Shown here in pieces: positions 33,001 to 42,000 of a DNA stretch of 64,000 nt. The DNA lies in assembly GCF_030013595.1 (NCBI RefSeq), contig NZ_CP122769.1; one strand, 5' to 3'. Every line of letters begins with the position of its first letter. Position 1 is the first letter of the stretch. Source of the stretch: Escherichia coli (lineage in GTDB: Bacteria > Pseudomonadota > Gammaproteobacteria > Enterobacterales > Enterobacteriaceae). Made by a program: the position numbers.

Positions 33001-36000
33001 TTTTTGTAATGTGGTATGGTGACCCTTCTTTCTTTTTAAGAGAATGCAGTGAAGAAAAGATAAAAGAAGCAGCTAATATTCGAATTTCTCCAGTTTATAC
33101 AGAATAATTCGATATGGGCATTTACTTATGCTTAAAGCTATAGTATAAAAACAATGAGCTTAAATATCAGCTCCCAAATTTGAGTAACTTTGCTTAAAGT
33201 TACTTTCGCGTTAAGCGTTGATTTAGCCGTGAAAAGCGGCCAGCTTAAACAAGCTGTAAGACACCACCGGCAAAATGTCACCTTTGTCGCTGGTGCACTT
33301 CCCATGCCTGAAAAAGGCAATCTGAATTTACCAAACCGTAACTAATTTAGCTCCTCCTGGAGCTATTTTTGTTGCGTACTTCTAATGCCAGATAGTATAA
33401 ATCAGGCGGTTCATAGCTTACGGGAGATGAATGACAGGCTTTGCCTTCGTGTTGAAACAAAAAATTGTTTCTTCCTTCTTACTATATATAGGTGACCCCA
33501 AATGTCTAAAAATAAAGCTCGCAGTAAAGCCCTTCATCAAACCTTTAGTGAAATTATTCCAGAGATGGATAAGGCGCTAAACAAACAGCTCTTAGAAGTT
33601 CTGATGAAATATACAGAACGTGATAATGAACTGATTGTTATTTTGAATGAGGACGGCCCAAATATCATTGAACTTAAGTCTCTTAAGCCTGTGTCTTTGT
33701 TGGCCGAAAAGCTTTCTGCTTATTCAAGCTATTATCATGTGGATGTTGTGGAGCTCGTGGTCAAGAAAATTGATTTCGAAGGAGCTTATAAGCTTCTTAA
33801 AGCTTCCCCAGATGTACCACTTTTTAAAAGCTTAACTGAACTGGATAAATATCTTGTTGAGGAGTTTGAAAAATACGGATTAAATTCATTTCTTGACGTG
33901 GATAATCTGGATTACTCACTTGAAAAAGCCAGTGAACTCAAAAATGAGCAGTTAATAAATTGGGTTTCGGACATCATTTGCAAACGTGAAAAATTAACTT
34001 TACGTAAGCGTTTTGATGTCGCAGTAAAGGCCCACTACGAAAATGTAGAAAAAATGTATGATACCATTCGTCCGTTAATGAAAAAACTGGGTTTCCCAGA
34101 AGATCTCATGACGCACACCTTTAGTGAGTTAAGCGTTTTTGAAACTAAAGGATGGGACCATGCAATAAAATCGAAAATTGAGACTCTCGCTAAGCGTGAA
34201 ACTCAATATTTAGATGATGCGGCTAAAGCAGAGAATCGACGTCTTGTAACAGAGAAGTTGGAGAACTCTTTAGCGATTGCACCAACTAAACCAACAAGAA
34301 ATTGGTTACATATTGCCGGAATTGCCTGTTTGGTAGTCTGCACGTTCATGTATGTAACTAATAAATTTATTTAATCCTGTTAAGGGGGAACCCTAACGGG
34401 GCTTCTCTTTGAACAAATCGAGGAGCGGAAAATGTCATATCTTGAATATATCAATGAAGTAAAAGTGTCCGGGATAGTTATCAGTGCTGTGGAGAAAAAA
34501 ATGACTGACCAGAGTATAGGTTTGTTAATAAAGCTCAAAAATAGGATGAAGACAGAAGTTGATGGTGAAATCACTGAGAGAGAATTTTCAGTTCAAATCA
34601 AGGTGTCGCCTGAAATGTATTCAACCTGTTTCACTGGTATAAATCAGGGTGATGAGTTGATGGTCTCCGGTTATATTGTTGTCGATACTATTATGATTGA
34701 AGGGAGAGAACATCCTCTTGACTACATGAGAGTGGTAGCAACAAGTAAGTTGGCTCACATACCTAAACCTCTAAAAGGTTTTGGACAAAGTAGCTTTAAT
34801 CAGATCTGACATTAAACCCACCCTAAAGGGGAGAAATCCCTTCATGGGATTTCTCCTTTTGGAGTCCCCATGAAACAAAAATTTAGGGCTACTGCAATAA
34901 GTAGTAATCAACTTAGTTTTTTTTCTATACTCGATATAGATGAAGATGAAATAACGCAAATAGTTGATTCACCCAAAGAGCATTTAAATGATGCTTACAC
35001 GTCCGGATTAAACTTTAAATCAGAAGAAAGTAACATTTCTGAGATAAATTATGATTCTGAAAGGCGTGAAAATCACCTTTATGAAAAATCCAAATTACTT
35101 AAAAATCAGATTTTGCATACAATTAATTTTGCAGCAGAAACAGATTATCTATATACGGTTGAAGAATATAACCCAGATTTGGGTGGTCTGGTAATAGAAT
35201 GGACCCCTGAGGATGTGTATGTTGTTTTTCTATCCGCTATGGAAGAGTCTTTGGAAATCATTAAAGAACTAGTGTTGAGGAGAAAGTTATTCTTCAAAGA
35301 TGACAATGGTAATATCACAGTGAATCCACTTTTAGAAGCTGAAACACGGTGGTATATGTCAAAATCATTTGAATACACTTGTTTATCTCATGGACTTGAT
35401 GCATGTGAATTTAGAGCGGAATTAAAATCATGGCTCTATTATCATTCGCATCGTTCGATTAGTGAAAACACGAAATTAGCTGAATGCAGGAATGATGATG
35501 AAATCATTTTGCATGATTGCAATGACGATATGGGCTGGGACATCTTCTTTGATCAGGATTATTTAATGTCAGAAAAAAAACTGGCTGTTAAATGGACTGA
35601 CAGGGAAATTATGGATGTTTACATAAAAGCTTTTAAATCCACATTAGAGTTGTTTGACGAGCTTGTTTCATGTGATCTGTTAACTAAACGAAACGCTTTT
35701 GGCAAGTTAGAAATCAATCCAATATTCGAAAATCATTTTGAATGGATCATGTCTGAAGCTTTTGAAATAGTGGGAAATCATCTTGGTTATAATGTGCCTC
35801 AAATCAGGAAACTGATGGCAACTATTTGCCAAATGAATCTCAAATAAAATGCCACTGGCAAACATCTGCCAGAGGGCGGTGTTTGCATTTTACCGGAGTT
35901 AAAAATGTCTAATGCCGCTATGAAGTTAAATGAAACATCTTCTGATGCTTATGAAAAATTAGAAGCTCTTCTTTCCCCGGATGTTATAAAGTTAAAACAT

Positions 36001-39000: not shown

Positions 39001-42000
39001 GCACTGATGGTTAAAGCCGGAAGGATGACTCCTGATATATCTTCTCGTCCGGAAAATCCTGTCCTATTTATTGAGTGGTATCTGCTTAACTCATTGCGAG
39101 TAAAAGTCCTTCAGCAGGCAGGTCACAAAGAAACACTCGATCCGTTTTTTGACTATGCCCAAAAGATACTTTCTCCAGTAATTTCTGATGTTGAGGAAAT
39201 TTTTCATGATGCTCTTGGTTGTGAAAATACTCAGGGCTGTGAATCCCTTGCTCGTAAGACCCTGGCTCTTTTAGAGAGACTGCGGGATGAGGCAAGGGAA
39301 CAACAGCAGCAGACAGAGCAGGAGGAGCAGGAGGCATATGATGAATCCGAGACCGAGACCGATACCGATACCGATACCGAATCAGAAGATAAATCGCTTG
39401 AGTCGACTGATAGTCGTGAGGATGATTCTGAGGACGATAGTGAAGGTCAGGCAGATACTTCCGATAACTCTGATCTTGCTCAAGAGGGATGTTCTGAGCC
39501 TTCAGAACTTGCTGAAGATAACGAGGGAAATAATGAACCCACCGGTGGCAATCCCACAGGTGATAACATTATTGAAGACGATACTGATGCGATTAACCCT
39601 TCCGAGAGTGAATCAGATGAAGCCAGTTCGACTAACGTTGAAGATGAAAGTAACTTTTCATCGGCTCAATGGGAGATACTGGCAGATTTGTTGGATGCCT
39701 TTCTTGGCAGTGATGAGGATAGCGAAGATTATCACGATGCTTTGGCTAAAGAGATTGAAGGTATTGCATCAAAAGTATCCGATGACGTGAAAGCCGAATT
39801 CGGTGCTTCTGAATGGGATATCCCTGATCTCCTTATCGATTTGAATGTTTACAATGAGGCTTTGTCTCTGAGTCATTCAATCGGTAGCGACTTGTCTGTT
39901 TTACAGCAGGTTAAAATGCGTGGCCGAAACAAAACTCATGAGCGTGGAATTACCTTCGATGGAAATCGATTAATTCTGTCACCAATGGGAGTTCGTGATG
40001 TCTTCAGAGCTCAAAGCGAATCTAAAAATAGAGGGCATGTTGGCCTCGTATTAGTTCGTGATATTTCAGCGTCAATGGCTAATGATGAAAGATATATTCA
40101 TGCCATTAAGTCAGATCTTGCTTTATCGATGGCCGCTGAAAGTTTGTCAAAAATGCATGTCTCCAATATAGTCTTTCCCTTCAAGGAAAGTGAATTTGAG
40201 ATTATCAAAACGTTTGATCAAAGCGTTGAGGAATCTCTATCGAAATTCACTCTTGGATGTAAGGGTTATTATACCCCTACGGGATCGGCTTTAATGGCAG
40301 CTGTTGATCTGTTACTTGACAGCCAATTCGATAGGAAAATAATTTTTCTTATAACTGATGGTTATCCGAATAAATCGGAATTTACTATCGGCGAAGTTAT
40401 GGAAAAGGCTAAATGTAATGGAATAGAAATCGTTGGTGTTGGTATTAAGACTGATGAAATAATTGGTTTTGAAACGGACACTTTCGTAACAGTTGATGAT
40501 ACTTCTTTATTGTCTATTGAAGTCAGTAAGCTAGTTCATCAAATACTTTCTTAATAAACTCTACCCAATCGGGGCAAAAGGCCCCGGTGGGTCTTTTTGC
40601 TCCATGAAGGAATAAGGAGCAAAATATGACTCAGATAAAAACTTACCGTGTAGAACATGAAAAAGTCGGTGCGATGCATAAAGTCCGTATTTTCGGACGT
40701 GTTGGTGAAGTTATAAGCAATGATAGCCCTCAGGAAAGAATCTTCCGCGAAGTCACTATAGCGGAGGGTAATAGCCAGCAGGCTGCGTTACTTGTAGATA
40801 ACTACATACAGCGTCTTGAGAATAATGGCTTCACGACTGAAGCATAAATGTTGAGGGCCCCCGGGCCCTCTTTCTTAAATTCTGCGTTGTGGGTTTCTCC
40901 CTGTCTTCTGCACCGCAGAAGGCATTGAGAAACTCACAATGCCAGATAAGAGAGATCATCATGACTTATGCATCCCCGGCTCTTCGTCGTAATCCACAGG
41001 AAGTATCTGAACACTTTATTAAACTCGTTCATGCTCGAATTGCTGAAGTGTCTGGCTGGAAGTATATATTCGAAAGAATACCTGCTTTCAAAGACGCTTG
41101 TGCAAAAGCCCCGAGCCAGGTTCCTTGCCCGTTTACTGGCGCAGGGAAATCGAAGTTTCGTTTCCGACAAAAAGACCTTTATACCGGATGTGCGATCCAT
41201 AATGACTTTCCGGTAAATGAGTTTTGCGACGGAATTGATGTTCTGGCGAAATATTATGAATTAAGTAAAACGCAGACTTGCAAAAAGATTCTCTCAGATT
41301 TTTTCGGGATGGATCTGCATGCTCCGTTAACTGACGCCGACATTGAAAATGAACGACGCTATAAATCAGCAGTTCGTGCCACAGAAACTCTTGACCGAGA
41401 GGAAGTGGCAAAGCGAATGCGAAAACTTGATGTGATGTATCACTATACCGGTGAAATCAAGCCTAATACTCCTGTTGCTTTGTACCTCCGTAATCGTGGG
41501 ATCTCCCGCTTACTGAGTCACTTACCAAAGGATTTAGGCTTTAATAACCGGATCTACTATTGGGATAAAGATAAGCAGAAATCGATTATCTATCCGGGAA
41601 TGATTGCGATCTATCGTGACACCCGAGGTCGGCCTCTGACTATTCATAGAACATACGTAGACAAAAATGGTGATAAGGCACCTGTAGAAAATCCAAAGCT
41701 GATGATGAAGCCTCCTGCCGATATGACAGGTGGCTCAATTCAGTTGTTTGACCCTCACTATGATTCAGGTAGTTCGACCTGGACACTGGGAGTGGCTGAA
41801 GGGATCGAGAACGCGCTTTCTGTTGTAGAAGCGACTTCAACACCATGCTGGGCAGCCAGCTCCGCATGGTGCCTTGAAAACGTTACTGTTCCTGATTTTT
41901 TACTGCCTCCGCCGGATGTAAAATCTATAAACTTTTATATCTGGGCGGATAAGGATATTGCTAACTCACAAGGCACTCGTGCCGGTATTGAAGCTGCTCA

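Follow-up and report, generated by a model that had tools for sequence, protein, structure and literature searches.

Introduction

In the cobaltochelatase CobSTN, as seen by cryo-electron microscopy (bioRxiv 10.64898/2026.07.21.739949), the N-terminal domain of CobT is folded like an M48C peptidase and docks onto the CobS lid, the shaft ahead of its von Willebrand factor A (vWA) domain inserts into the CobS ring, and CobN sits between the CobT N-domain and the face of the MIDAS, the metal-ion-dependent adhesion site. Related genes have been described in mobile elements. A phage metallopeptidase-vWA fusion, paired with a MoxR ATPase, was published in 2021, with a proposed role in assembly (Iyer et al., PMC7824862); for viral cobST, a raised cobalamin supply was proposed (Liu et al. 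2021, PMC8651126); and ORF100-103 of plasmid pCAR1 were found in 2009 to be conserved in R478, Rts1, SXT and R391 (PMC2642839). Here we analyse three genes at positions 35905-40554 of a 64,000-nucleotide stretch of Escherichia coli DNA (contig NZ_CP122769.1; hereafter the window), which is an IncHI2 conjugative plasmid. They encode an AAA_5 ATPase, a DUF3150 protein and a CobT-like vWA protein.

We propose tentatively, at a little under an even chance, that this triad works as an ATP-driven, CobSTN-like machine of three parts, with a protein and not a tetrapyrrole as its client, in conjugative DNA metabolism or establishment. The proposal is supported by the co-occurrence of the three genes, by homology to CobS and CobT that includes the shaft and the MIDAS, and by intact ATPase, MIDAS and zincin motifs. 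Conservation of the cluster and the phage metallopeptidase-vWA fusion are already known from the studies of 2009 and 2021. What appears to be new is that conjugative elements have in DUF3150 an obligate third partner of their own, that the mobile-element CobT-like proteins keep an HExxH motif lost in genuine CobT, that DUF3150 has a conserved aromatic C-terminal tip, and that the AAA_5/zincin-vWA pair is tied to replication and repair genes in phages and conjugative elements alike.

A conserved module of the MOBH backbone

The three genes are co-oriented on the + strand, as a sequence-only reading of the window had described them, and lie just downstream of trhU and trhN, which belong to Tra2, and of the helicase gene trhI. 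The first (35905-36963) encodes a CobS-like AAA+ ATPase of 352 aa belonging to the AAA_5/MoxR clade (Pfam AAA_5). After an intergenic gap of 367 bp (36964-37330) comes the DUF3150 gene (37331-38458, Pfam PF11348), with 375 codons counted from an ATG, although the longest open reading frame (ORF) begins at a TTG at 37319. The third gene (38536-40554) encodes the CobT-like protein of 672 aa, with its acidic linker, vWA domain and MIDAS. The region 35905-40554 is 100% identical to that of pSE08-00436-1, typed as IncHI2A, MOBH and MPF_F by MOB-suite, and matches 1402 PLSDB records, 1105 of these over at least 80% of its length.

Hidden Markov models (HMMs) were built for all three proteins and run over every fetched locus, covering IncHI2, IncHI1B/FIB Klebsiella, Aeromonas MOBH, IncC, Pseudomonas IncP-7-like MOBH and Photobacterium plasmids, several genome and metagenome contigs, and one SXT/R391-type integrative and conjugative element (ICE; L025) retrieved via a published SXT exo primer. 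All three components were present in 13/13 independent DUF3150 loci, with homologs down to about 17-20% identity. Co-occurrence outside the plasmid lineage, a test set beforehand, thus bore out the idea of a three-gene system. The DUF3150 family evolves fast: an exhaustive HMM search gave 732 representatives at 50% identity, whereas a word-indexed protein search recovered close relatives only.

The order and spacing of the triad vary among loci while the gene set is constant. One locus has the order vWA, AAA, DUF3150; one has the vWA gene downstream of a Toprim gene; and the SXT-type ICE (L025) reads exo, AAA_5, a 256-aa protein, DUF3150, a 146-aa protein, vWA. In other elements the position between ATPase and DUF3150 holds unrelated genes of 164-302 aa. 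A conserved fourth component at this place was considered and rejected.

The surroundings recur as well, and comprise a UvrD-type helicase, SSB, RecT/Bet with YqaJ/Exo, DUF7146-Toprim, TraN, TraF, TraH and TraG. A homologous helicase is found upstream in L003, L004, L008, L009, L014 and L015, and a Toprim gene follows the triad in L003, L008, L009, L015 and L017. According to MOB-suite and the gene tables, elements that have both a MOBH relaxase and MPF_F transfer genes carry AAA, DUF3150 and vWA genes in synteny. The triad is a fixed, conserved backbone module of MOBH conjugative elements, not variable island cargo.

This placement bears on a defence function, in which the triad would be an anti-phage or anti-plasmid system of the vWA-MoxR ternary type with the third protein as effector or sensor. 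The genes are plasmid-borne, and their layout resembles that of the vWA-MoxR-VMAP ternary conflict systems (PMC7159879). A fixed backbone position, syntenic across the MOBH family, argues against such a function, as does the lack of a recognisable effector domain in DUF3150; PADLOC gave marginal P-loop matches for the ATPase (E of at least 2e-4) and none for DUF3150 or the vWA protein. PADLOC thus recognised neither a VMAP ternary nor a known defence system, and no search aimed at VMAP homology was made. We regard defence as very unlikely. Among the roles that the sequence-only reading had offered (establishment, anti-defence or defence), DNA processing and establishment fit the context best and defence gains no support.

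A distant relative of CobS

The ATPase matches Pfam AAA_5 (9.2e-28) and phrog_249 (2.5e-30). Its Walker A motif GESGSGKT (aa 103-110, nt 36211-36234), its Walker B motif LLDEVD (about aa 166-171, nt 36400-36417) and the sensor and arginine residues N214 and R237/R290 are invariant in 8 diverse ATPase homologs. Profile matches in the PDB were to Midasin (7e-21), NorQ (2e-9), CobS and CbbQ, and in the CobS match aa 43-300 align with CobS 17-281, almost end to end; over 294 aa the ATPase is 22% identical to the CobS of S. meliloti. An AAA_5 protein with intact Walker A/B and a nearby vWA protein with a MIDAS form a pair of the MoxR-type AAA+ and vWA-partner kind. The likeness to CobS/CobT, RavA/ViaA and NorQ/NorD, first suggested from sequence, is upheld by the CobS, NorQ and CobT profile matches.

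In one IncHI2 plasmid (PLSDB NZ_CP091320.1, 42203-44034) an IS1B insertion splits the ATPase gene, which shows that a plasmid can lose the module and still be carried.

A CobT homolog with an intact HExxH site

The 672-aa protein comprises, in order, an N-domain with a predicted zincin fold (CobT_N/M48C-like; aa 1-255, 38536-39300, +), an acidic low-complexity disordered linker (aa 256-440, 39301-39855, +), and a pre-vWA segment equivalent to the CobT shaft followed by the vWA domain with its MIDAS (39856-40554, +). The linker has 34% D+E and an isoelectric point (pI) of 4.05; in CobT, its counterpart is a disordered linker of about 90 residues (bioRxiv 10.64898/2026.07.21.739949). The vWA domain is matched by Pfam VWA (7.9e-07), and its MIDAS residues, D509-x-S511-x-S513 (nt 40060-40074), T580 (nt 40273-40275) and D608 (nt 40357-40359), are invariant in 9 homologs. 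The acidic linker and MIDAS vWA domain reported earlier from the bare sequence are thus confirmed. The best PDB profile match of the whole protein is CobT itself (9uka_G, 1.3e-12), in an alignment covering CobT 331-458, the shaft at 373-413 included, and 521-617, that is, linker, pre-vWA segment and vWA domain.

The link between the N-domain and CobT comes from three sources: Pfam CobT matches, which cover the N-domain in 5/9 homologs (aa 12-264 in the ICE homolog of L017), a MAFFT alignment with genuine CobT, and a fold search that assigned a zincin fold with modest scores (Z of at most 7.7). Foldseek alone gave non-significant results for the N-domain (E of at least 0.1), and sequence and profile searches of this domain against the PDB did not reach CobT_N. 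Judged from these comparisons, the protein is a true CobT homolog with the full CobT architecture: zincin-fold N-domain, acidic linker, shaft region and MIDAS vWA.

The N-domain carries H70-E71-A-G-H74 (nt 38743-38757), with E137 (nt 38944-38946) as candidate third ligand. The HExxH is on a helix after a three-stranded sheet and the Glu on the next helix, and an HExxH...E pattern is the gluzincin signature. HExxH, D133 and E137 are invariant in 10/10 aligned conjugative-element homologs (20-38% identical), whereas N129 is invariant in nine homologs and nearly so in the ten-sequence set. For comparison, genuine cobT genes adjoining cobS were taken from Sinorhizobium, Cereibacter and Pandoraea and their N-domains aligned. 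All three have D-S/A-x-A-L in place of HExxH and retain the downstream Glu. HExxH is also absent in 15/15 proteins with both CobT Pfam domains, several of them named cobaltochelatase CobT, so that 18/18 genuine CobT proteins are without it, while every full-length plasmid-type homolog has it. The window protein, keeping H70-E-A-G-H74, does not show the pseudo-peptidase pattern of genuine CobT. Vibrio phage ICP2 has HExxH and the residue equivalent to E137 in its CobT-like protein, and HExxH recurs in two phage-like metagenomic proteins beside AAA_5 genes (L026:2744-10524 and L027:1552-8940). The invariant HExxH...E, the zincin fold and the ICP2 motif point to a predicted metallopeptidase-vWA protein next to a MoxR ATPase. 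Adaptors of the mobile-element kind thus resemble potentially active metallopeptidases, and the chelatase subunit resembles a relative that is peptidase-dead. With the complete HExxH...E zinc site kept, the adaptor is predicted to bind metal and would probably cleave peptide bonds.

The linker is hypervariable and of low complexity, its length differing by more than 100 residues between elements. It contains a run of more than 25 Gln in the Aeromonas protein (L004:9958-11832) and long SDDNSD-type tandem repeats in the Photobacterium protein (L008:10948-13041). One nr entry, P0251 (584 aa, 'aminotransferase'), aligns with the window vWA protein at 100% identity across 35% of that query and is probably a chimeric or mis-assembled record.

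The same comparisons bear on a genuine cobalt chelatase, in which the plasmid would hijack host CobN to raise cobalamin supply. The homology to CobS and CobT is real, and this hypothesis has been advanced for viruses (PMC8651126). However, the ATPase scores 34.4 bits against the CobS equivalog model TIGR01650, the cutoff being 558.55, and 34 bits against the cobaltochelatase NCBIfam model, the cutoff being 779. HExxH separates the triad adaptors from all 18 genuine CobT proteins, and DUF3150 is an obligate extra partner. No cobN or other cob gene, and no nitric-oxide reductase gene, is annotated in about 64 kb around the locus in the identical plasmid, in keeping with what had been seen in the window. 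E. coli does not make cobalamin de novo and Salmonella follows the anaerobic CbiK route, so that the main hosts would have no CobN to hijack. With scores this low, CobN absent and a different motif pattern, the triad is not orthologous to a metabolic chelatase, and a chelatase function is hardly credible.

DUF3150, the third component

The 375-aa protein, held by the sequence-only reading to lack any recognisable motif, does have one: Pfam DUF3150 (PF11348) matches it with 3.7e-23, its aa 28-262 aligning with positions 1-241 of a model 257 positions long, and the RefSeq annotation agrees. Besides this identity, that reading had missed the N-terminal zincin domain with its HExxH in the partner protein and the conservation noted in the literature (PMC2642839). 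The folded core of DUF3150 (aa ~10-310) consists of a small beta-sheet and helical bundles and is followed by a disordered, acidic C-terminal tail (aa ~320-375) ending in ...ELKGW. No solved structural relative of DUF3150 was found.

Among diverse DUF3150 members, 107/127 (84%) end in an aromatic residue; the tail has a median length of 44 aa and a pI of about 4. ORFs from the same loci, a crude background, are aromatic-ended in 16%. The tips differ between elements: DDDGDYFF in IncC, ELKGW in IncHI2, and TEGFFF, FGTFWF and SVFYF elsewhere. The style of the tail recalls the C-terminal tips of SSB and T7 gp2.5, and we take it as a putative docking peptide.

A tblastn search with DUF3150 against 50,697 phage genomes gave no match, and the triad showed no DNA-binding domain. 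A literature search for DUF3150 function or for IncC/IncHI data on the triad genes returned no functional study, the one paper among those searched that names DUF3150 being on an unrelated matter.

Published data on transfer

In pCAR1, the ORF100-109 operon, which includes the MoxR-like ORF101 and the VWA ORF103, is among the most transcribed backbone units and, in a host-dependent manner, is more transcribed in a transconjugant host; its authors suggested a role in conjugative transfer (Miyakoshi et al., PMC2642839). In SXT, the s089 operon, described as an ssb-bet-exo recombination system, is activated by SetCD (PMC4344509), and from gene order we infer that the triad genes, downstream of exo, belong to it too. 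When s067, s068 or s070 is deleted, SXT transfer falls 10-fold or less (PMC2791158); by the gene order in L025 these genes would be AAA_5, the 256-aa protein and DUF3150. An assignment of s067/s068 to DUF3150/vWA through IncC synteny was rejected by the gene order of the SXT-type ICE. Together, the published data fit an accessory, transfer-linked role for the module.

Some of these data could also be explained if the MoxR-vWA pair were a chaperone that helps to assemble, or proteolytically mature, components of the type IV secretion system (T4SS) or pilus, much as MoxR-vWA pairs are proposed to act when virions or tails of some viruses are assembled. The genes are directly downstream of the Tra2 genes trhU, trhN and trhI, and traN or traF-traH-traG adjoin the triad in other elements. 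In SXT the module is co-regulated with transfer genes by SetCD (PMC4344509), an assembly role was proposed for the phage MoxR/peptidase-vWA pair (PMC7824862), and the suggestion of the pCAR1 authors points in the same direction (PMC2642839). However, none of the three triad proteins has a signal peptide or membrane segment, and the nearest neighbours are DNA enzymes rather than T4SS parts. The pairs in phages and phage-like contigs, likewise, are beside polymerase, primase and helicase genes, not structural genes. In SXT, moreover, the deletions cost at most 10-fold, whereas true mating-pair-formation genes are essential (PMC2791158). An assembly chaperone is accordingly an improbable explanation.

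Proposed function

The CobSTN-like machine that we favour would work as follows. By homology to solved CobST, the ATPase would form a hexameric ring. The 672-aa protein would be its adaptor, with the N-terminal zincin-fold domain docked on the lid, the pre-vWA segment entering the ring pore as a shaft, and the MIDAS face of the vWA domain holding the third partner. DUF3150 would replace CobN as an element-specific third subunit, either client or client-adaptor, its acidic, aromatic-ended tail being a likely docking peptide. The adaptor would cleave the client or grip it in a metal-dependent manner. The likely job of the machine would be ATP-dependent remodelling, possibly clipping, of a protein on transferred or replicating DNA, the client presumably being linked to the DNA transactions of the element; the module would aid transfer or establishment without being essential.

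A DNA-metabolism context recurs in both conjugative elements and phages. The ICP2 pair adjoins primase, helicase and polymerase genes; in the phage-like contigs, the L026 pair is beside a DnaE-UDG polymerase and the L027 pair beside a UvrD helicase. This context also bears on the strongest rival, anti-defence or host takeover, in which the complex would capture, inactivate or degrade a host protein in the new cell. Its target could be, for instance, an immunity factor (of restriction or of another kind) or a nucleoid protein, with DUF3150 as decoy or target-recognition subunit, and it would be comparable to ArdC, an anti-restriction protein that contains a metalloprotease. The location of the AAA_5/zincin-vWA pair within lytic-phage replication modules argues instead for a role in the element's own DNA metabolism, and there is no similarity to characterised anti-defence proteins beyond the generic zincin fold. 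It also counts against this rival that the SXT module is probably far from oriT and so not obviously in a leading region. Anti-defence is possible, though unlikely.

A more specific and rather doubtful idea is that the triad is the mobile-element counterpart of the eukaryotic Cdc48-Wss1/SPRTN, an ATP-driven segregase with an active zincin protease that would strip off or cleave proteins stuck on incoming or replicating DNA. DUF3150, with its SSB-tip-like acidic, aromatic tail, would then be the targeting subunit; the targets might be, for example, the MOBH relaxase in its covalently attached state, factors bound to host SSB, or a nuclease of the host; and chelatase CobST would be a derived, peptidase-dead offshoot of the same machine.

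Several points weigh against the CobSTN-like machine proposed here. The ATPase is only 22% identical to CobS, the N-domain of the adaptor is not alignable to solved CobT by HMM, and DUF3150 is without detectable similarity to CobN. The gene set is not always compact, since the vWA gene is displaced from DUF3150 in L015 and IncC carries ssb-bet-exo within the triad, between ATPase and DUF3150. The core of DUF3150 is acidic (median pI 5.25), which disfavours direct DNA binding, and the laboratory phenotype in SXT is weak. The HExxH could serve docking, binding or regulation rather than catalysis: if the CobT numbering is offset by +6, as assumed from the published CobT of 637 aa and the S. meliloti CobT of 631 aa, the lid-contacting R76 and D80 would fall on the HExxH helix, making a docking or regulatory role possible. 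The complex itself, its peptidase activity and its client are predictions.

The main large carriers of multidrug resistance in Enterobacterales and Vibrio, namely IncHI2, IncHI1B, IncC and SXT/R391, have the triad in their backbone, and the sequenced plasmids that bear it number at least 1,400 to 3,200 in PLSDB alone; they include clinically important ones. If the proposal is true, the conditioning of transfer or establishment by a protease or remodeller driven by ATP would add a new step to conjugation and offer a possible target against plasmid spread. The HExxH split bears also on the dispute over viral cobST, chelatase or peptidase-chaperone, and suggests that the cobaltochelatase adaptor CobT is related to the mobile-element proteins but peptidase-dead.

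Other features of the window

The conserved upstream neighbour is TrhI, a UvrD-type helicase (31323-33107, +). Between it and the triad is a 125-aa weakly SSB-like protein (34432-34809, +), which in BLASTP shares 27% identity over 70 aa with the SSB (PF00436) of locus L013 (E 2e-7). The conserved downstream neighbour is a Toprim primase-like protein with DUF7146 and Toprim_3 (40889-42193, +; RefSeq start at about 40958), which matches the DNA primase family phrog_510 with 1.4e-27. The DNA-processing neighbourhood recognised in the window at the outset is thus real. Just upstream of the ATPase, a 325-aa hypothetical protein (34870-35847, +) has an internal duplication, two of its regions matching one segment of the Klebsiella IncHI1B counterpart, with repeated motifs in its translation.

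The gap between the ATPase and DUF3150 genes contains a 57-aa ORF (RefSeq WP_001176647.1; 37095-37268, +) and a strong hairpin resembling a terminator (37282-37312), which lies shortly before the start of DUF3150. GC-rich hairpins of this terminator-like kind are enriched at 31000-43000 (22 against 8.5 +/- 2.6 in shuffles) and occupy nearly every intergenic gap of this co-oriented block, further examples being at 33348-33365, 35866-35879, 38479-38504, 40568-40588, 40853-40870 and 42203-42225. They could be partial terminators setting subunit ratios, mRNA stabilisers or single-strand DNA structures; an Rfam search of the intergenic hairpins gave no match. The match to the reference plasmid spans 4651 bases against the 4650-base query of the triad region, suggesting a 1-base indel somewhere in it.

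Between trhN and trhI a 290-aa gene is encoded on the reverse strand (30271-31143, -), at the position that s063 occupies in SXT; reverse-strand genes adjoin traN at this place in the IncC and Photobacterium plasmids too. Deletion of s063 lowers SXT transfer about 100-fold (PMC2791158), and BLASTP between the 290-aa gene and its positional counterparts detected no similarity. A second, unrelated vWA ORF (62446-63129, -), matched by the CobT-vWA HMM with 3.7e-07, probably belongs to the IncHI2 tellurite (ter) cluster. Two sharp islands of higher GC content, at 22001-26000 and 46001-48000 (0.51-0.53 against 0.36-0.40 in the flanks), are consistent with insertion-sequence or cargo insertions in a backbone rich in AT; in the reference plasmid, the annotation places ISApl1 and IS3 close to the 22001-26000 island.

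Comparison with known systems

Among more remote systems, Cdc48/p97-Wss1/SPRTN shares with the triad no specific homology beyond the zincin fold; its ATPase belongs to another AAA+ clade, and the triad has no detected DNA-binding domain. NorQ-NorD, CbbQ-CbbO, RavA-ViaA and Midasin/Rea1 are closer, with an ATPase of the same clade and a vWA-MIDAS adaptor that couples the motor to its client. Their adaptors, however, have no zincin N-domain, DUF3150 is absent, and the clients are metabolic enzymes or pre-ribosomes.

The phage MoxR/metallopeptidase-vWA pairs (viral cobST, for instance ICP2 gp41/gp42) have the AAA_5 partner, the HExxH N-domain, the linker and the vWA domain, and are likewise encoded by mobile elements, often beside replication genes. 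They differ in that the phages examined have no DUF3150 and the gene order is usually CobT then CobS; the proposed virion assembly or cobalamin boost is not transferable to a plasmid.

CobSTN (PDB 9uj*/9uk*) resembles the triad in its AAA_5 ATPase, with the near end-to-end alignment to CobS, in the four-part build of the adaptor (M48C/zincin-fold N-domain, acidic linker, shaft and vWA-MIDAS) and in having three components, the third protein being expected on the adaptor. It is set apart by its third subunit, the 137-kDa CobN in place of DUF3150, of about 40 kDa and unrelated fold, and by the D-S/A-x-A-L of genuine CobT where the triad adaptor keeps HExxH. With about 22% identity and scores far below the cutoffs, the triad belongs to conjugative DNA metabolism, whereas CobSTN serves cobalamin synthesis.

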